From the IMG/VR virus record IMGVR_UViG_3300046063_000009: a DNA stretch of 56,695 bases, one strand, 5' to 3'. The stretch's first letter is position 1. Every line of letters starts with the position of its first letter. Shown piece after piece: positions 1,691 through 56,695 of this stretch. The notes below the pieces were generated by a model. It searched no databases. It had not been told where the DNA came from and saw nothing but the letters and a program-made list of their open reading frames with translations. Source of the DNA: a virus. Made by a program: the position numbers and the translations under genes.

Positions 1691-1927
1691 TTATAGAACG
1701 TCTTGTCCCTGGGTCCCGAACTCGGTGTAGAGCGCCGAGACGAGATCCGAACCGTCTGAGCGCCGGGTGACTGCTGCCGGCCAGCGCGAGTAGATGTCCT
1801 CGGCCCTGAGCGTGACCAGCTCCATCGTATCGCCGTCGATCACGCGGTAGCAAAACGCCGGGACCGTCCAGACCTGATCGGCGGAGCGGTTCGAGGGCCC
1901 GTCCTGCCGACCGTACTGCTCGCTCAT
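1691..1927 (-). CDS. Hypothetical protein (78 aa)
   Basis: ATG start, ATGA overlap with the upstream gene, acidic composition. Confidence 0.7.
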   Translation of the reverse strand: MSEQYGRQDGPSNRSADQVWTVPAFCYRVIDGDTMELVTLRAEDIYSRWPAAVTRRSDGSDLVSALYTEFGTQGQDVL

Positions 1928-2223
1928 CGATCTTGCTCTCCGTGCTGCTCGGTACGCTCGTCGTCCGCGTACTTCTCGATCCAGTTATACATCGTGCCTC
2001 GGCTGAGTCCGGGTGCGTCCTCGTCATCCGAGCGGAGTTGCTTGTTCACGCGCCGGAGCATCGCTGATCGATTGTCGTCGGTCTCATCGCCGAGTCGCTC
2101 CAACACTTTGGGGAGCGAAGCATCGAAGGCGCGCTCGACGTCGCGCTCGCGCGGTGAGCGTGCAGCGTCGGCGTTCAGGTCCTTTACTATCATCTCGTAG
2201 CTATCGCTGTGGTGTTCAGACAT
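1924..2223 (-). CDS. Hypothetical acidic protein with a possible C-terminal HTH (LSRGTMYNWIEKY)
   Basis: ATG at 2223. The start overlaps the TGA of the orphan portal-end remnant (ATGTCTGA). Confidence 0.7.
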   Translation of the reverse strand: MSEHHSDSYEMIVKDLNADAARSPRERDVERAFDASLPKVLERLGDETDDNRSAMLRRVNKQLRSDDEDAPGLSRGTMYNWIEKYADDERTEQHGEQDR

Positions 2224-2257
2224 CGACGATCCTCACGAACGTATGCCGCTCGTTGGG
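2216..2257 (-). pseudogene. Orphan remnant of the ancestral portal 3' end (PNERHTFVRIVDV*)
   Basis: 14 codons match the last 14 codons of the portal ORF (2951-2910, PNERHTFVRIVDI*). Differences are almost all at synonymous third positions, and this copy uses the genome-typical G/C-ending codons. Confidence 0.75.
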
Positions 2258-2951
2258 GGCGTTACTGGTGTCGGTCGGAGTGACACGGTGGACAAAGCGC
2301 GACCAGGTTCTCCAGGTCGAACGGCTCCCCGCCAGCACTATACGGCGTGATATGATGGGCGTGAAGTGGCTGATCCCGAGCCCCGCAGTCCTGGCACGTC
2401 CACTTGTCGCGCTCGTAACAGTCCTGCCTCGCGTCGATCCACTCGGGCCGACTGTAGAACTCGACAGCCTCCCGGTCGGGGTTCCACTGTGGGTGATCCG
2501 AACCAGTAACCCCGAACATAGGGTTGCCCTCGGCAGTTCGGCGCGCAGAGAGCACCGACCGGAACACCTCTCGTTTCTCGGGACCCCAGATTTCCCAGGA
2601 ATTTTCTCTGTTCCCAGCGAGGAGCCGGGACGCGAGCGCGCGTCTGTCCTCGGATTTCTCCATCGCCAACCGGCACGCCTCGGACTGCGAGCGCGTCTCG
2701 ATCTCGTGCCGATCGAGCCACCGCCGGATCGTCTCTTTTGTCGTCTCAACATCGTACTCGCGCTCCAGCAGGTCGGCGATCTCTTTGGTCGATAGCTGGT
2801 CGTCGTGATAGCGGGCTTCCAGCCACTCTCGATCCCTGTACGGCTCCGGGTCCTTCGGTCGGTACGGCATAGTGTGGCGATACAACGCCACACCTAATCA
2901 GCGCTAGCCTCATATGTCAACTATCCTCACAAATGTATGTCTCTCATTTGG
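2258..2951 (-). mobile_element. Putative homing-type insertion: recoded portal 3' end + spacer + HNH endonuclease gene
   Basis: It is bounded by the duplicated portal end. The AT-rich block 2892-2951 is atypical for this genome. Confidence 0.6.
2262..2870 (-). CDS. HNH endonuclease with an N-terminal HTH-like domain
   Basis: C-terminal motif CQDCGARDQPLHAHHITPYSAGGEPFDLENLVALCPPCHSDRH (HNH with CxxC pairs). ATG at 2870; the track start 2891 is a GTG. Confidence 0.85.
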   Translation of the reverse strand: MPYRPKDPEPYRDREWLEARYHDDQLSTKEIADLLEREYDVETTKETIRRWLDRHEIETRSQSEACRLAMEKSEDRRALASRLLAGNRENSWEIWGPEKREVFRSVLSARRTAEGNPMFGVTGSDHPQWNPDREAVEFYSRPEWIDARQDCYERDKWTCQDCGARDQPLHAHHITPYSAGGEPFDLENLVALCPPCHSDRHQ

Positions 2952-4964
2952 ATGTAGGCAATGAACGCGGTACTGGAGGTTGCTGAAGTATTTGGTCTGG
3001 ACCTCCCGCTCCATACGCTTGAGATCCTGCATCGACACGCCACCGTCGGTCATCGATTTCAGTTCCTCGCACGCTTCGGTCGTCCGCGAATCCGAGGGAC
3101 CGCGCCACTCGAAGCGGTAGCGCGCTGGCGGTCCCTCCGCGTCCCGGTCACCGCCGGTATCGGATCGCTCCTCGTAGCCCTGTTCGCGGGCCGAGTTGAG
3201 CACTGCTGCGCTCTCGGTGCGCGCGACCGTCTCCAAGTCGTCTTTATCGATACCGGGAAACTGGTCGCCGAGAGCGTCGGTGAGGCTCCGCAGCGACCAG
3301 CCCGACGGTTGGGTGAGCTGGTCTTTGAACACCTGCTCGATCGTCGCCCGCGTCGCCTCCTCAAGCGCGTCGATCCCGCGGAAGACCGCTCCGCGATCGA
3401 TCGCTTCTTTGACGCGCTCGATCACGAACTCGGGGACTGACTGGTCGCCGGTCCAGCTTCGCTTCTCGATCTTCTCGATCGAACGTGGCTGTATTTGCTC
3501 CCTGTGGGCATCCAGTAGCCACTCTTCTAAGGTATCGTGTTCCGCTTTCGAGAGCGCACGCGCCGACGTACCGCTGGCTGTATCGGCGTTCTGTGCAACC
3601 GCCTCCTCGCTCCCGCTCGCACCATCGCCAGCGCCGCCGGCGAATCCGGCTGGCAGGCCACCCGAACCACCCGCCCCTTCATCCCCCTCGCTGGTCTGGA
3701 CCTCGATCTCGCCGTCGTCAACGATCAGCTCGTCGTCGCGGTAGGAGACGTCGAGGCCGACGCCAGCCAGTTGCTCGGCGGCCCGGCCCTGTTGGAGCCG
3801 TACCTGGGCGCGTTCCTCGCGCTCGGTGGCAGTCTGCTCGCGCTCGAACTCGAAGCGGAGGTCTTCGTTAATGTCCGGCCACAGCAGTTGTCGGTTGATC
3901 GCCTCCTCGAGATACCGGAGCATCACCCGAAAACCCCGCTGGGCGTAAGCGTCCTGCTGGGAGGAGTCAGTTGCTCGATTCGTGTTCTGGAAATCGTAGC
4001 CCGCATACGAGGCGTTGCACTTGAAGATCGCCCCGAGGACCTGCACCCACCACTTCGATCGTTCGAGGAGCTGGAGCTCGTTGTAGTTCGGCGAGATCGG
4101 CGTGAAATCCCACCCACCACGGGAGACGATATGCCGGTGTCGCTGCCCTTCGTTGAGCTCCCACTGCCGATCGACGCGCTTGAACTCCTCGGGGGGAATC
4201 GGGTGGTCCTCGGAGTCCTTCGCCGCGACGATCCCGCTCGGGCCACCCTCTTTGAGATCCTTGACCTCTTTATCGGAGAGTTCATCCAGTAGGTCGATCA
4301 CGCCGCTCCCCTTCTCGACGGGGCCATAGCCGTACTGATAGTTCTCCCGACCGCCCTGCGCCCAGCTAAACCAGACGACCTCCTCGAGCTCGAACTCCGC
4401 ATCGATACTCCGGGTCGAAAAGCTCGCCTGCACGTACCCCTCGGTGAGTCCGTACTTACTCACCCTCTTGTAGAAGCGTGCGGAATTCACCGGAACCGCC
4501 TCGACGAGCTTCCCAGCGGGGGTGTAGTGCTTCACCCAGGCCGCATCGCCGAGTTCCAGCAGATCACGAGCACATAACTCGCGCAGGTCGCGGAAGGTAA
4601 GCTCCGGGTGCAGCTCAGTCAGCGTGCGTCGTGCGTCAGTGATCGCGGTGTCGTCGACGTCCTCGCCCTCATCTCGGACGCGCAGCGTCCAGCTCGCGGT
4701 GGCCGCGTCCTGGGAGAGCGTATCGATGTATGACTGGGCAACCGGGTTGTCTCCGAAATCGCGCAGCGTGACCGGATCGTAGGGCTTCGGAAGGCCGTCC
4801 TGGTCGCGGATGTACCGACCGATTCCAGCATCCAGCGAGGCACGCCGCTCCACGTCGTCGTCTTTCTTGACAGCATCCTCCTCGCGGTCTTCGCTCTCAC
4901 CGGCCCCCGATCCCTGGTCACTCCCCTCCCCGGCACCCGACCGGAAGCGATCGAGGAATCCCAT
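2910..4964 (-). CDS. Portal protein fused to a C-terminal Mu F / SPP1 gp7-like head-morphogenesis domain
   Basis: 684 aa in the packaging/head region. The C-terminal part carries RTESAAVLNSAREQGY...YRFEWRGPSDSRTTEACEEL, typical of Mu F-like minor head proteins. Confidence 0.65.
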   Translation of the reverse strand: MGFLDRFRSGAGEGSDQGSGAGESEDREEDAVKKDDDVERRASLDAGIGRYIRDQDGLPKPYDPVTLRDFGDNPVAQSYIDTLSQDAATASWTLRVRDEGEDVDDTAITDARRTLTELHPELTFRDLRELCARDLLELGDAAWVKHYTPAGKLVEAVPVNSARFYKRVSKYGLTEGYVQASFSTRSIDAEFELEEVVWFSWAQGGRENYQYGYGPVEKGSGVIDLLDELSDKEVKDLKEGGPSGIVAAKDSEDHPIPPEEFKRVDRQWELNEGQRHRHIVSRGGWDFTPISPNYNELQLLERSKWWVQVLGAIFKCNASYAGYDFQNTNRATDSSQQDAYAQRGFRVMLRYLEEAINRQLLWPDINEDLRFEFEREQTATEREERAQVRLQQGRAAEQLAGVGLDVSYRDDELIVDDGEIEVQTSEGDEGAGGSGGLPAGFAGGAGDGASGSEEAVAQNADTASGTSARALSKAEHDTLEEWLLDAHREQIQPRSIEKIEKRSWTGDQSVPEFVIERVKEAIDRGAVFRGIDALEEATRATIEQVFKDQLTQPSGWSLRSLTDALGDQFPGIDKDDLETVARTESAAVLNSAREQGYEERSDTGGDRDAEGPPARYRFEWRGPSDSRTTEACEELKSMTDGGVSMQDLKRMEREVQTKYFSNLQYRVHCLHPNERHTFVRIVDI

Positions 4965-6670: not shown

Positions 6671-6706
6671 ATGCCCGCCGCTATATAAATGTATAGCATA
6701 GCGGTG
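6671..6706 (-). promoter_or_regulatory. Conserved viral promoter, copy a
   Basis: Coding strand reads CACCGCTATGCTATACATTTATATAGCGGCGGGCAT, with the blocks GCTATGC / TACATTTAT (TATA) / CGGG(T/C)A, 16 nt before the ATG at 6654. Confidence 0.65.
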
Positions 6707-6757: not shown

Positions 6758-8500
6758 TCAGGACTTGTGAACGCTGGTCTCGTACTGGCCCTGGCCCGCT
6801 CCAGCGCGGCCCAGCTTCTTCTCCGAAAATAGTGCGTACCGCATCGCATCGACACCGTGATCGTCCTCTTTGACCGGCTCGTCGCCGTCGTCCTGCCACG
6901 AGTAGCCCTGGATCTCGGTGAGCGTATCGGGCGGCTTATCGTCCGTCCGAAGGTGGCGATCGGCCTGGTGCGCTCGCGCGCCACGGATGAGGTGTACCTC
7001 GGCCCGACCGTTCTCGTCCACGCGGAGCCGGCGCTTCACCTCACGGATGCCATCGCTCACGTCCTTTCGCGCCGCCGTCGTGCGGAAGTACAGCGGATCG
7101 GGGATCTCTGTCTCGTCGGTTCCCTCTTCGCGGAGGTTCGCCGCGTAGCCACGGACGCCCTCTTTCCAGTCGGCGCGCTCGCCGCTGTCGTGGTCGGCGT
7201 AGACTCGCTCGACATGTTCGTACTCGTGTGGGGCCATCCGGTGCAGCGCTTCGCCCGCGATCTCGTCCGGTAGGGTGCGGGTGCGCATCAGCTCGCGGTA
7301 GAGGATGTACCCGTGCGTGGGGGTGCGCGCCCACCACTGCACGCAGGTTGGATCGGGTCGGTAGCCCCAGTCGATGCTCATGACGATCGGCGTGCCCTCC
7401 GGCGGGATCACGCGCGCTGGTTCGTACCCCGGATCGGCGTCGGGCGCTGCCTCGGCGTCGCCGGTCGGCGAGGAATAGGCGCGCTGTCTCGAGGCGAGGG
7501 TTTCGAAATTCGTAACCTGCCATTCGTCTCCAAGGAGATCGGCGACGTCCAGCGGGTTGATGACGTGGGTGGCGATCGAGAACTCGTCGTAGACGCGCCC
7601 CTCGTAGCCGACCCACTGCCCCCGGAGGAAGCGATCGGCGTCCGTCCCGGAGAACTGGTCTTTGAGCGTCGGCGCGTAGTCGTCGGGGTTGTGGATGTTA
7701 TCTTCGGTTTCGCCCTCGAAGACGTCGCCGACGCCCTCGTTGTAGAAGCGCTTATACAGCCAGTGCGTCGGGTCGTCGGGGTTCGTCGCGGCGTAGATCT
7801 GGCGCAGGGGGAGCTTCGGCACGTAGGGGTTCGACAGCGATTCGAGACGAAGGCGACCGGCGAGCATCAGCCACTCACCTTTCGTTAGTTCGATCACCTC
7901 ATCGACGCCGACGTGGCCGAGGTTCATTGACGCGACGTTGCCACCACCGCGCTGCGTGGAGCCGATCGTGTTCAGCCCCTTGTAGTATAGCACCGAGGTC
8001 GGCACCGTCGCCAGCGTCAGCTCATCGCACGCCTGGCAGGGCACCCGGATCGGGCCGTCGATCTCGGTGACGTCTTTCCCGAGGCGATTACGGATCGGTT
8101 CGCTCGTCTCGAACTCACAACCGGGGTTCGCGCAGTAGTGGCGAGGGTACAGCGGCGAGCGGATCTCAATGCGATGCCGGCTCTGGTGGTGATCGACGAC
8201 CTGGTTCTCTGGAAGCGTCTCGTCCAGCAGGACCTCCAAAGTGGTTTCCTTCAGCGAGGAGTGCGTCTTCCGGGCGAGTAGGCCACGGTTGCCCGGATAG
8301 AGGATCGACAGCAGGTAGGCCTTCTCGGTGACGGCGCGTGACTTCCCCGAACCGAACGCGCCCGATCCAAGGATCTCCGAAGCGGTCGATTCGAGAAAGC
8401 CGCTCTGCCACTCCAGTGGCTCGAACAGGTACGCGCGGGTCCCGGCACCGAAGCCACCACCGCCGGAGTCACCTACGCCTGCTCGGTCGTCTGTTGACAT
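6758..8500 (-). CDS. terL: Terminase large subunit with a zinc-ribbon insertion in the ATPase domain
   Basis: Walker A GSGAFGSGKSRAV, about 580 aa, packaging-module position. Trimmed to the ATG at 8500 (MSTDDRAGV...). Contains CANPGC...CQAC at aa 123-158. Confidence 0.8.
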   Translation of the reverse strand: MSTDDRAGVGDSGGGGFGAGTRAYLFEPLEWQSGFLESTASEILGSGAFGSGKSRAVTEKAYLLSILYPGNRGLLARKTHSSLKETTLEVLLDETLPENQVVDHHQSRHRIEIRSPLYPRHYCANPGCEFETSEPIRNRLGKDVTEIDGPIRVPCQACDELTLATVPTSVLYYKGLNTIGSTQRGGGNVASMNLGHVGVDEVIELTKGEWLMLAGRLRLESLSNPYVPKLPLRQIYAATNPDDPTHWLYKRFYNEGVGDVFEGETEDNIHNPDDYAPTLKDQFSGTDADRFLRGQWVGYEGRVYDEFSIATHVINPLDVADLLGDEWQVTNFETLASRQRAYSSPTGDAEAAPDADPGYEPARVIPPEGTPIVMSIDWGYRPDPTCVQWWARTPTHGYILYRELMRTRTLPDEIAGEALHRMAPHEYEHVERVYADHDSGERADWKEGVRGYAANLREEGTDETEIPDPLYFRTTAARKDVSDGIREVKRRLRVDENGRAEVHLIRGARAHQADRHLRTDDKPPDTLTEIQGYSWQDDGDEPVKEDDHGVDAMRYALFSEKKLGRAGAGQGQYETSVHKS

Positions 8501-8790
8501 GAGGTGCAGTACCGGCGTGCGTCCAACTCCGATTCGAGCGTGAGGCGCTGGCAGACCATGCACTCCGTGGCGAGGGGGTGACCGGGGAACTCGGGAGCGG
8601 ACACGTCCGCACCGAAGCGTTCGAGCGGTGACACCGCGCACTCCGTGCAGGTGTACCGTCGCCGACCATCTGGCCGGCGCACCCAGGTCGTCGCGACGTG
8701 GAGGTCCGGTTCGGCGATACCGTTTTCCGATCGACGACAGCTCGTACAGCGCGAGTCGAGGACCGTCTCATCGAGCACTTCCAGCGCCAT
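8473..8790 (-). CDS. Four-CxxC zinc-ribbon protein (105 aa)
   Basis: MALEVLDETVLDSRCTSC...YTCTEC...ECMVC...YCTSC. ATG at 8790. Overlaps the terL start by 28 nt. Confidence 0.7.
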   Translation of the reverse strand: MALEVLDETVLDSRCTSCRRSENGIAEPDLHVATTWVRRPDGRRRYTCTECAVSPLERFGADVSAPEFPGHPLATECMVCQRLTLESELDARRYCTSCQQTTEQA

Positions 8791-16788: not shown

Positions 16789-16825
16789 GTGCCCCGTTAT
16801 AGATAAATGTAGGGCATAGCGATAG
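16789..16825 (-). promoter_or_regulatory. Conserved viral promoter, copy b
   Basis: Coding strand reads CTATCGCTATGCCCTACATTTATCTATAACGGGGCAC. Confidence 0.6.
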
Positions 16826-21836: not shown

Positions 21837-21871
21837 CTACCCGCAAGAAAATAAATGTATAGCATAGCGCC
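21837..21871 (-). promoter_or_regulatory. Conserved viral promoter, copy c
   Basis: Coding strand reads GGCGCTATGCTATACATTTATTTTCTTGCGGGTAG, 16 nt before the ATG at 21820. Confidence 0.65.
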
Positions 21872-22897: not shown

Positions 22898-22933
22898 CTA
22901 CCCGCCGCTATATAAGTGTATGGGGTAGCGGTG
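22898..22933 (-). promoter_or_regulatory. Conserved viral promoter, copy d
   Basis: Coding strand reads CACCGCTACCCCATACACTTATATAGCGGCGGGTAG, 16 nt before the ATG at 22881. Confidence 0.6.
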
Positions 22934-27615: not shown

Positions 27616-27649
27616 CTACCCGGTAAGATATAAATGTACGCATAGCGCC
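27616..27649 (-). promoter_or_regulatory. Conserved viral promoter, copy e
   Basis: Coding strand reads GGCGCTATGCGTACATTTATATCTTACCGGGTAG. Confidence 0.6.
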
Positions 27650-28311: not shown

Positions 28312-28350
28312 GCGCTGTCGATACCCCATACATTTACACGTTACGGGACA
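28312..28350 (+). promoter_or_regulatory. Conserved viral promoter, copy g (the only plus-strand copy)
   Basis: GCGCTGTCGATACCCCATACATTTACACGTTACGGGACA, 24 nt before the ATG at 28375. Confidence 0.55.
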
Positions 28351-35556: not shown

Positions 35557-35592
35557 CTACCCCGTGGCAGATAAATGTACGCGATAGCGACC
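35557..35592 (-). promoter_or_regulatory. Conserved viral promoter, copy f
   Basis: Coding strand reads GGTCGCTATCGCGTACATTTATCTGCCACGGGGTAG, about 420 nt upstream of the primase-helicase start. Confidence 0.6.
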
Positions 35593-56006: not shown

Positions 56007-56695
56007 TCTCCGTCACCGCCTGGAGCCAGCGAGATGTCGTCCGTGGTCATGCGGGACTTCTGCTCGTCCTGCTCGAACTCGGGATCGAACACGCTCTTAC
56101 GGACGACCTGGTTGCCGTCCTCGTCGGTCTCGAGGTCGTCGTCGTCGAGCCCGAGTATGGACTTGACAGCGCTTGTCGCGCCCTTCTCCGCACCCTTCTC
56201 GGCAGCTTCCTCTGCTACCTCGTCGACGTCCACCTCCGTGTGCTCTTTCTCGTCGTCGTCCTCGCCACCCTTGGTGCCGCTCGCGCCGCTCTCGGCACCG
56301 CCGGATTCGTCGTCGTCCTCACCTTCGGAGTCCTTATCGACCTGCTCGTGCAGCGTCGAGATCTCCGCCTCAGCCGAGTCCATCCGCTCGGCGAGGTCTT
56401 CCTGCTTGGAGACGAGATCCTCCTGGGTATCCTGTACGTTCGTTGCGATGTCGTTCGTCTTCTGGGTCAGGTCGTGGATGTCGCTGAGGGAAACCTCGTC
56501 CTCGCCGCTCTCCTTGCCTGACTCCTCGTCCTCGTCAGTCATGGGTATGCTTTTGAACTGCGTATGGAGTGTATCGGCAGCGCTAGCGAGACAGCGCCGC
56601 GCTTCCGCTTCGCTGGCGCGCTTCGCTGCTGCTCGCTCGTCTGCTGTCTCTTTCGCCGGAGCCTCGGAGCCCTCGCCAGGGATGTCGATCTCTGC
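56003..56695 (-). CDS. Protease-scaffold fusion, C-terminal part (continuation of 1-754 across the circular junction)
   Basis: The frame of track ORF 56003..56542 stays open upstream through 56543-56695 (...AKETADERAAAKRASEAEARRCLASAADTLHTQFKSIP-MTDEDEE...). The C-terminal part is hyper-acidic and coiled-coil-like. Confidence 0.7.
   Translation of the reverse strand, partial: AEIDIPGEGSEAPAKETADERAAAKRASEAEARRCLASAADTLHTQFKSIPMTDEDEESGKESGEDEVSLSDIHDLTQKTNDIATNVQDTQEDLVSKQEDLAERMDSAEAEISTLHEQVDKDSEGEDDDESGGAESGASGTKGGEDDDEKEHTEVDVDEVAEEAAEKGAEKGATSAVKSILGLDDDDLETDEDGNQVVRKSVFDPEFEQDEQKSRMTTDDISLAPGGDGE
56641..56695. repeat. Terminal direct repeat, right copy
   Basis: Identical to nt 1-55. 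Confidence 0.97.

Follow-up and report, generated by a model that had tools for sequence, protein, structure and literature searches.

The window analysed here is a 56,695 nt stretch of viral DNA, IMG/VR record IMGVR_UViG_3300046063_000009, in which the portal gene of a tailed haloarchaeal virus is followed directly by a gene for an HNH endonuclease, and in which the last 13 codons of the portal gene occur twice, once on either side of the nuclease gene. This arrangement is probably a free-standing, homing-type HNH cassette of ~0.7 kb that has entered the 3' end of an essential portal/gpF gene and carries with it a replacement for the gene end, the nuclease activity and homing in this reading being presumed from sequence. 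A preliminary description of the locus, made from the letters of the window, had already seen in it the logic of a free-standing homing endonuclease equipped with a replacement end; an empty site in a close relative and the recurrence of the arrangement in further lineages now support that proposal, with cleavage as its predicted component.

Two copies of the portal 3' end and an empty site

All features of the locus lie on the minus strand. The portal gene (2910..4964) encodes a 684 aa protein in which a portal domain is fused to a Mu gpF-like domain, as judged by Pfam matches (Phage_portal, E 3.8e-25, and a weak match to Phage_Mu_F at aa 555-637) and by homologs, including the 'Portal and Mu gpF-like' proteins of HCTV-2 and HHTV-2, to which it is ~50% identical. 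Its C-terminus consists of HPNERHTFVR, the C-terminal motif of the gpF domain conserved in all relatives, followed by IVDI and the stop codon; the termini of the portal open reading frame (ORF) as read are HPNERHTFVRIVDI, HCLHPNERHTFVRIVDI and YRVHCLHPNERHTFVRIVDI, each running into a stop. The last 13 codons and the stop make up the portal-joined copy of the repeat (2910..2951), which favours A and T at wobble positions and has its native twin in the second, 'orphan' copy. A 39-nt spacer (2871..2909), containing a TATA-like ATTAGG, an inverted repeat and CACACT before the ATG, leads from the portal stop to the start of the HNH gene (2262..2870), the 202 aa product of which comprises an N-terminal helix-turn-helix (HTH), a helical linker and a C-terminal zinc-finger HNH core. 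Its stop codon, TAA at 2264-2262, is followed at the right junction (2258..2261) by the filler bases CGC (2261-2259), with identity to the empty allele beginning at 2258. The orphan, a displaced native portal end (2216..2257; PNERHTFVRIVDV and a stop), reads CCC AAC GAG CGG CAT ACG TTC GTG AGG ATC GTC GAT GTC TGA, and within ATGTCTGA (2223-2216) its TGA is fused with the ATG of a 99 aa ORF (1924..2223), which originally overlapped the portal stop; HCTV-2 gp24 is also 99 aa long and abuts the portal gene. The positions previously assigned to the portal end, the HNH stop, the orphan and the stop/start overlap were all confirmed.

The two 42 nt copies share 31 bases, with a longest identical run of 8 nt, and their 11 differences are spread over nine codons in such a way that 13 of the 14 codons (stop included) keep their meaning, the sole amino acid change being V to I. 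The G+C content at third codon positions (GC3) is 4/13 in the portal-joined copy and 11/13 in the orphan; the value for the portal's last 18 codons (5/18) is the lowest among all 667 such intervals in the gene, the remainder of which has a GC3 of 78%. The preliminary description was therefore right to call the differences nearly all synonymous, the A/T-ending spelling of the portal-joined copy atypical and that of the orphan typical of this genome, the whole window being 64% G+C. A low-GC donor for the entire cassette was ruled out, as the GC3 of the HNH ORF (76%) is normal.

An empty version of the site is found on L003, a 2,758-bp metagenomic contig from the Joint Genome Institute (JGI), which in a protein search was found to encode a 684 aa portal (P0001) 98% identical to that of the window. 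On this contig the portal gene (218-2272) and the next, 99 aa gene (2265-2564) share the same 8-nt overlap, ATGTTTGA, and no HNH gene lies between them, which is the configuration that had been predicted for relatives lacking the nuclease: a GC-rich portal end abutting the homolog of 1924-2223. Nucleotide alignment (blastn) gives 98.05% identity between window 5181-2923 and L003 1-2259, to the left, and 96.9% between window 2258-1803 and L003 2230-2686, to the right; the register offset between the two, equal to the number of extra bases in the window, is exactly 694, the size of insertion originally estimated. A three-way codon alignment confirms the right junction at 2258, and the stretch 2258-2216, comprising the orphan, is identical to the functional portal end of L003 at 42 of 43 bases, whereas the portal-joined copy differs from L003 at 11 of 42 bases, as it does from the orphan. 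Because the 13-residue match is in frame and includes the stop, and because the orphan is so nearly the functional end of L003, the repeat is, on sequence grounds, not a product of chance.

The extent of foreign DNA differs between the two sides. To the left, the first 2184 nt contain 29 mismatches to L003 (1.3%), with none in the last 328 of these, and the final 85 nt of the portal (2997-2913) contain 20. At the level of codons, 16 of the last 29 differ (11 synonymously, five not), compared to 26 of the 655 preceding ones (Fisher p 7.5e-14), the five replacements being H>Q, I>T, E>V, V>C and V>I. This apparently imported, donor-type tract (2913..2997) thus extends past the repeat by 14 to 46 nt on its upstream side, as far as 2965 and probably 2997; in that part (2952-2997) native sequence was replaced and not duplicated. 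Beyond the right junction the sequence is native from the first base, with four mismatches in the next 325 nt, the level of the backbone. Such asymmetry would be predicted if the left end had been set by recombination within the portal gene and the boundary on the right were fixed. Of the earlier claim that the portal was kept intact by a synonymously recoded end, the replacement end therefore stands and the purely synonymous recoding does not: with five amino acid changes in ~85 nt, the tract looks like a donor allele. The opposite polarity, in which L003 is the product of a repeat-mediated deletion from a window-like genome, was ruled out, since the end of its portal gene is free of the recoded bases and retains the native GAG CAC GTC CTG CAC, which is gone from the window.

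Two further observations concern the boundaries of the insertion. The portal sequence CTCCAGTACCGC and the 3' end of the HNH gene, CACCAGTAACGC, match at 10 of 12 bases (2973-2984 and 2259-2270), in the same register but, in the latter, 14 nt closer to the PNER codons; matches as good occur about 10 times per 113,390 positions, a weaker analogue is seen in L055 and HCTV-2, and the match may be either microhomology dating from the original join or fortuitous. At ~1800-1815, inside a 78 aa ORF (1691-1927), the homology of the window to L003 breaks down, which marks a second mosaic boundary ~450 nt downstream of the cassette.

Recurrence at one codon position

Searches for relatives of the HNH protein detected homologs, at 45-55% identity, solely on contigs of metagenomic or viral origin, and all 10 full-length homologs examined directly follow a portal or gpF-like gene ending in the same motif. 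Orphans follow the HNH gene in five further lineages (L055, L008, L078, L007 and L079), each matching the tail of its own lineage; the lineages counted here and below are not phylogenetically independent. For instance, in the HCTV-2-like L055 the in-frame end consists of the same 19 residues as the orphan (NERHTFVRQVDALVDEGGF and a stop), with 11 synonymous differences in 57 nt, and the orphan is 95% identical to the portal end of HCTV-2 (3/59 bases differ), compared to 84% for the backbone. By contrast, the in-frame tails of L008, L007 and L079 differ from their orphans in both sequence and length; that of L008 ends in HSFVRYVEQ and its orphan reads NCRHTFVRHVEGM, each with a stop. The HHTV-2-like L078 also has an orphan, from which the in-frame end is almost indistinguishable except for CCA TCC at the site; an extra 38 aa ORF with two CxxC pairs lies between its HNH gene and the orphan (~765-880). 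In L079 (1-105 and 709-845) the portal-joined tail, ending in HIACRHTYTQSFNA and a stop, is ~30 residues shorter than the orphan tail, which extends from DRHTFTHTFDVGKADVE to TN and a stop, so that the imported end truncates a C-terminal extension of the portal there.

All six orphans, including that of the window, are intact, in frame and terminated by a stop codon. They begin with C CCC AAC in the window, G AAC in L055, AAC in L008 and AC CCG in both L078 and L007, each start lying inside the His codon of H-P-N or immediately past it. Five of the six lineages agree to within ~4 nt of one codon boundary; the orphan of L079 begins some two codons deeper in the motif. Only the orphans of the window and L055 could be compared with an allele lacking the HNH gene. 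That the orphans look so fresh speaks for conversion that is recent or still under way, not for a single ancient insertion. An orphan is absent after the HNH gene in the clade of L005, L006 and L009 and in HCTV-5, and in L077 the contig ends too near the HNH gene for its presence to be judged.

Alleles with and without the nuclease gene differ at the same codons. In the HPNERHTF-coding sequence of alleles lacking the HNH gene, the proline codon is CCG or CCC in 21 of 21 cases and is followed by AAC (AAT in the low-GC L066). In HNH-linked alleles the position of the proline codon is occupied by CCA, CCT, GTG or ATC in eight of 10, the other two differing within the next three codons, and several also change the asparagine codon (to AAT, CAT, CAC, TCA or TCC). 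The spelling CAT ACA TTT is common to the window, L055, L005 and L006, with CAC ACA TTT in L009 and CAT TCA TTT in L008; among alleles lacking the HNH gene it occurs only in L066, where it appears to reflect the genome-wide codon usage of a generally low-GC lineage and not recoding. L066 (IMGVR_UViG_3300046051_000007) has a C-terminal portal extension of ~150 aa beyond the gpF motif and no HNH gene nearby. In four lineages the HNH-proximal end of the portal has a GC3 of 28-49%, compared to 78-91% in the rest of the gene and 67-87% in the HNH ORFs. The predicted target, at an L003-type junction, reads CGCGAGCACGTCCTGCAC to the left of the boundary and CCCAACGAGCGGCATACGTTCGTG to its right (AACCTCCAGTACCGCGAGCACGTCCTGCAC and CCCAACGAGCGGCATACGTTCGTGAGGATCGTCGATGTTTGA, respectively). 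Since the orphan keeps the right half of this presumed target, immunity of the carrier allele must come from splitting of the site together with the changes to the proline and asparagine codons.

The distribution of the nuclease gene is patchy. A member of the family is absent after the portal gene in L003, HCTV-2, HHTV-2, the contigs L113-L116, which represent two relatives with portals ~53% identical to that of the window, and ~17 IMG/VR contigs. Among cultured viruses, HCTV-5 gene 111 (L080, NC_021327.1 67233-67976) encodes a ~30% identical HNH protein with two HTH modules and directly follows a separate gpF-like gene, 110; in its close relatives HVTV-1 (L081) and HCTV-1 (L082) the gpF-like gene is followed by a zeta-toxin gene with no HNH gene between. 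The motif codons of HCTV-5 differ from those of HVTV-1 by Y>F, F>L and CGC>AGA. Pairwise HNH identities roughly track portal identities, so that the association appears old and mostly within lineages. Wider searches added little: a megablast of 9 kb against cultured phages and an IMG/VR scan with the single portal protein gave no match, a profile scan of genome contigs with the HNH alignment gave distant bacterial HNH domains only and no haloarchaeal provirus, and a scan of IMG/VR with the 17-mer GARMGACATACATTTGT gave mostly unrelated matches, the relevant ones being L066 and L070 alone.

As to the genome as a whole, positions 1-55 of the window are identical to 56641-56695, and an independent, 100% identical 27.7-kb Logan contig (L004) spans the window ends; the genome is therefore complete and assembled as a circle, with a unit length of ~56,640 bp, in agreement with the circular permutation of genomes in cultured relatives, that of HCTV-2 being one (PMC3950731).

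The HNH protein and its upstream region

The HNH gene is taken to start at the ATG at 2870 because the encoded MPYRP is the family's conserved N-terminus. Pfam identifies the HNH domain (E 2.5e-11; aa 166-208 of the GTG-start ORF) and gives weak matches to the winged HTH families HTH_33 and HTH_32 at the N-terminus. In an alignment of eight family members the pattern CxxC..HxHH..N..CxxCH..H is invariant, comprising the catalytic and zinc-binding residues C159, C162, H170, H172, H173, N188, C193, C196, H197 and H201. An AlphaFold2 model (mean predicted local distance difference test score, pLDDT, 80.5) consists of a three-helix N-terminal module, with the helices at 14-54 above a pLDDT of 90, a helical linker and a beta-beta-alpha core at 170-200. 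Among solved structures, the HNHE of phage GVE2 (5h0m, E 1.8e-12) is nearest in sequence; a Foldseek search of the PDB matched the generic HNH core only (best E 0.008), without separating homing from packaging types. The HTH module is duplicated in P0056 and in HCTV-5 gene 111, and is common to HCTV-2 gp80 and gp84 (L084, NC_021319.1 49663-50199 and 52835-53299), HNH proteins with a different core, HHxNGxxxDNRxxNL, whose modules are ~33-40% identical to that of the window's protein over 53-64 aa. This sharing points to shuffling of a DNA-binding module among haloviral nuclease genes, and as HCTV-2 thus has two other HNH genes elsewhere, a complete lack of HNH genes cannot be claimed for the family.

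Several features of homing endonucleases are therefore found together: a nuclease domain with intact catalytic and metal-binding residues, a separate HTH module, presence or absence among close relatives, a single reused site, and carrier alleles changed within the presumed site. The protein is predicted to cleave the empty allele, and its gene would be preferentially inherited in mixed infection.

The preliminary description had placed the recoded stretch 35-55 nt upstream of the HNH start and suggested that the replacement portal end may double as the cassette promoter. The distance needs correcting, and the suggestion is not borne out as it was put. The stretch concerned, CATACATTTGTG (2939-2928), is 58-69 nt from the ATG at 2870, and across cassettes the distance from recoded stretch to start ranges from ~59 to 110 nt. 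A virus-wide promoter-like motif, TACATTTAT, is present on the minus strand at 6685-6693, 16803-16811, 21851-21859, 27630-27638 and 35571-35579, with near copies at 22912-22920 (minus) and 28329-28337 (plus); it has nine hits at one mismatch or fewer, compared to 0.64 expected by chance, and occurs in the context GCTATGC-TACATTTAT-N8-GGGTAG with a start codon ~30 nt after the core. The similar TACATTTGT in the portal end (2937-2929) has neither flank of this motif and lies 58 nt from the HNH ATG, outside the fixed 30-nt spacing. A more plausible signal lies in the spacer: in nine of 11 cassettes the start is preceded, at -28 to -30, by a TTAA-like hexamer, which in the window is ATTAGG (2898-2893) at -28, and L007 has a weaker TA-rich hexamer at -31. 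Blocks of TTAAGTGTGGC and CACACYATG are also common to many cassettes. The likely promoter of the HNH gene is hence the TATA-like element at -28, which would give a leaderless or near-leaderless mRNA; this leans on what is established about promoters in haloarchaea. The spacer is missing from L077, and there the recoded end may after all act as the promoter, with ACATACATT at -33 to -26.

A 9-bp inverted repeat, GGTGTGGCG (2894-2886) and CGCCACACT (2879-2871), with a 6-nt loop, directly precedes the HNH ATG and folds as a hairpin in the window sequence. RNAalifold found no consensus helix before the HNH start, and similar repeats are seen in L007 and, more weakly, in L078 and L079. The inverted repeat could be an operator or a hairpin at the 5' end of the mRNA.

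Alternative explanations, proposed mechanism and parallels

Several points weigh against a homing cassette. Cleavage and homing are inferred, and the recognition site is a prediction; the nearest sequence relative of the catalytic core is a phage HNH protein described as a packaging component (5h0m, GVE2; PMC5304195); and the empty-site relative is known solely as a 2.7-kb contig, such that an HNH gene may be present elsewhere in that genome. The orphan is missing from the carriers named above, and L078, nearly unrecoded, is an example of a cassette that does without heavy recoding. Changes to GC-ending two-fold codons largely account, as a matter of arithmetic, for the AT bias of recoded ends, which is by itself no proof of selection. 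Finally, the congruence of HNH and portal divergences is equally compatible with repeated homing and with an old association that was largely vertical and subject to losses.

This congruence is also the starting point for an account in which the cassette arrived through ordinary illegitimate or homologous recombination, as a 'moron' whose nuclease played no part, in one old insertion followed by vertical descent and repeated loss. Haloviral genomes are mosaic, the second homology break is only ~450 nt away, and activity of the protein as a nuclease is a deduction, all of which suits such an origin. Under old vertical descent, however, untranslated orphans should decay, yet all six are intact, and their divergence is at the backbone level in the window (1/43) and below it in L055 (3/59, compared to 16%); furthermore, the orphans match the tails of their own lineages while the in-frame ends have diverged, the junctions cluster within ~4 nt of one codon boundary in five of six lineages (L079 being the one ~two codons further in), and carrier alleles differ specifically at the junction codons. 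We consider this origin unlikely. Nor is it probable that the repeat arose in place, through insertion of the HNH gene with a local duplication, followed by recoding of the upstream copy under selection for an AT-rich promoter region, for avoidance of self-cleavage or for avoidance of repeat-mediated deletion, with no donor allele involved. The two copies in L055 do encode the same amino acids over 19 codons despite 11 base changes, L078 resembles a young stage with changes at the site only, the normal GC of the HNH ORF excludes a low-GC donor, and AT-wobble enrichment is seen in four lineages, including the orphan-less L009. Against this, the divergent tract of the window extends 14-46 nt upstream of the repeat into unduplicated sequence and contains five replacements typical of a diverged allele, the remainder of the portal diverged by just 1.3% over the same time, and the in-frame tails of L008, L007 and L079 are unlike their orphans in sequence and length; we give this account very little weight.

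The third account draws on the position of the gene, always beside a head-assembly gene, and on the resemblance of its core to GVE2 HNHE: the protein might be a DNA-packaging cofactor of the HK97 gp74 type, and the repeat a by-product of gene acquisition. Searches with tblastn also detect end-of-genome HNH genes in Paenibacillus cos phages, at ~25% identity, and the congruence of HNH and portal divergences would be expected of a packaging partner. The preliminary description had listed a role solely as terminase cofactor among the findings that would undo its proposal, and several defining features of gp74-type proteins are lacking here. The gene is absent at the locus from the 98% identical L003, from HCTV-2, HHTV-2 and L113-L116, and is present in HCTV-5 but not in HVTV-1 or HCTV-1. 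The large terminase (6758-8641) matches Terminase_6N and Terminase_3, not Terminase_1, to which the packaging role of HNH proteins is specific according to the summary of Kala et al. 2014 in PMC8861465. At 202 aa the protein has an added HTH; its gene is ~3.9 kb from the terminase gene, not adjoining it; and with a circular assembly and circularly permuted relatives (PMC3950731), cos cleavage is not expected. Nor would such a role account for the presence, in six lineages, of intact orphans at a single codon position. A packaging role as the whole explanation is thus improbable, only a shade less so than an origin in place is.

HNH endonucleases are common in phage group I introns, and an intact orphan that would restore the same protein could be read as the second exon or extein around a self-splicing intron or an intein. 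The chance of this is practically negligible: an Rfam search of 1900-3300 found no family beyond a chance snoRNA match (E 0.59), the portal frame runs through a complete in-frame end to its stop, and the spacer and a separate start follow, with the HNH ORF out of frame with the portal. With no intron in Rfam and a separate ORF after the stop codon, this candidate was rejected.

A homing-type cassette would operate as follows. The HNH protein would recognise the HPNERHTF-coding sequence of alleles lacking its gene, and cut or nick at or near the boundary between the H and P-N codons. In a mixed infection the break would be repaired from the HNH-carrying genome, with copying of the donor portal end, the spacer and the HNH gene. 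The left end would recombine within the portal gene, leaving a conversion tract of 50-85 nt, and to the right of the break the recipient would keep its own DNA, generating the orphan, which once formed could serve as the right homology arm for later homing. Portal function would be kept because the cassette brings a complete replacement end with a stop codon, and the carrier allele would be protected because its site is split and its proline and asparagine codons and wobble bases differ from the target. Transcription of the HNH gene would probably start from the TATA-like box of the spacer at -28.

A stronger proposition, that these cassettes are active natural 'home-and-rescue' drives in archaeal viruses, is tentative, and we rate it at somewhat below an even chance. 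If true, the HNH protein cuts the most conserved portal/gpF coding stretch of co-infecting relatives lacking the gene; the target being essential, viable progeny would arise only through copying the cassette and its cleavage-immune end; the displaced native end would be more than a fossil, acting as a right-hand homology arm renewed at every homing event; and wobble recoding would have been selected, both for immunity and against repeat-mediated loss. Engineered home-and-rescue (HomeR) and recoded-rescue drives (PMC7968924) likewise direct a nuclease against the 3' part of an essential gene for which they carry a recoded, cleavage-resistant replacement. Those are synthetic Cas9 systems of diploid animals, whereas here a natural protein nuclease is found in viruses and the drive behaviour is putative.

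Among described systems, the nearest parallels are 'mobile ORF' gene hybrids in the mitochondria of fungi, those of Allomyces and Glomus in particular; such hybrids are known from Allomyces macrogynus atp6, Glomus sp. atp6, atp9, cox2 and nad3, Rhizopus atp9 and Mortierella cox2 (PMC3630166). In these, as here, an endonuclease ORF interrupts the 3' part of its host gene, the C-terminus read in frame is of foreign origin, and the original C-terminal sequence survives as a displaced copy further downstream, with far higher identity to the sister taxon than that of its in-frame counterpart (91-98% compared to 64-81% in the fungi, 98% compared to 74% here), many of the differences being synonymous. 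The present cassettes differ in that the host is a tailed haloarchaeal virus and the nuclease an HTH-HNH protein, not of the LAGLIDADG or GIY-YIG families; in that the cassette ORF is never fused in phase, a stop, the 39-nt spacer, its own start and a promoter-like element intervening; and in that one codon position of a structural gene is reused across virus lineages, with carried ends enriched in AT at wobble positions.

Other routes of such genes into essential genes comprise group I introns, inteins, the translational bypass of T4 mobA and gene 60, and the nrdA of Aeromonas phage Aeh1, split by mobE. The cassettes resemble these in interrupting a conserved essential gene without destroying its product, but here the gene is re-terminated by an imported end, and there is no splicing, bypassing or two-piece protein. 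To our knowledge, free-standing homing endonuclease genes of phages sit between genes and have neither a replacement gene end nor a displaced native end; literature searches, in a limited collection, found no phage precedent for the layout, which does not prove that there is none. In other respects the cassettes are like those of T4-like and other phages (Seg and Mob proteins; intronless homing; PMC10448857), as a stand-alone nuclease with a modular DNA-binding domain adjoins an essential gene, is patchily distributed among close relatives, and is associated with recombination boundaries at the gene and co-conversion of flanking markers, mobility being presumptive in our case. With HK97 gp74 and GVE2 HNHE, the latter described as part of the phage packaging machinery (PMC5304195), the protein shares a zinc-finger HNH core of PF01844 and a place in the head and packaging module (PMC5304195, PMC3592412, PMC8861465). 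Genes for the gp74-type packaging proteins, however, adjoin the terminase genes and the cos site (PMC3592412, PMC5304195), whereas the present gene is beside neither, encodes an extra HTH, coexists with a terminase not of the Terminase_1 type, and is absent at the locus from near-identical and cultured relatives.

If the homing reading holds, re-termination with an imported end would be a fifth way for viral homing endonuclease genes to occupy an essential gene, beside introns, inteins, split genes and translational bypass. This solution, known so far from fungal mitochondria, would now extend to archaeal viruses, with a different nuclease family and repeated use of a single codon position. 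The comparison yields a concrete predicted target and a natural series of carrier alleles, from the barely changed L078 to the heavily recoded, with which the effects of target-site immunity and co-conversion on a structural gene can be probed. HCTV-5 and HVTV-1 form a pair that can be cultured, making the idea experimentally accessible. The cassette would also explain one kind of mosaic boundary in haloviral genomes, and may represent a natural counterpart of recoded-rescue gene drives.

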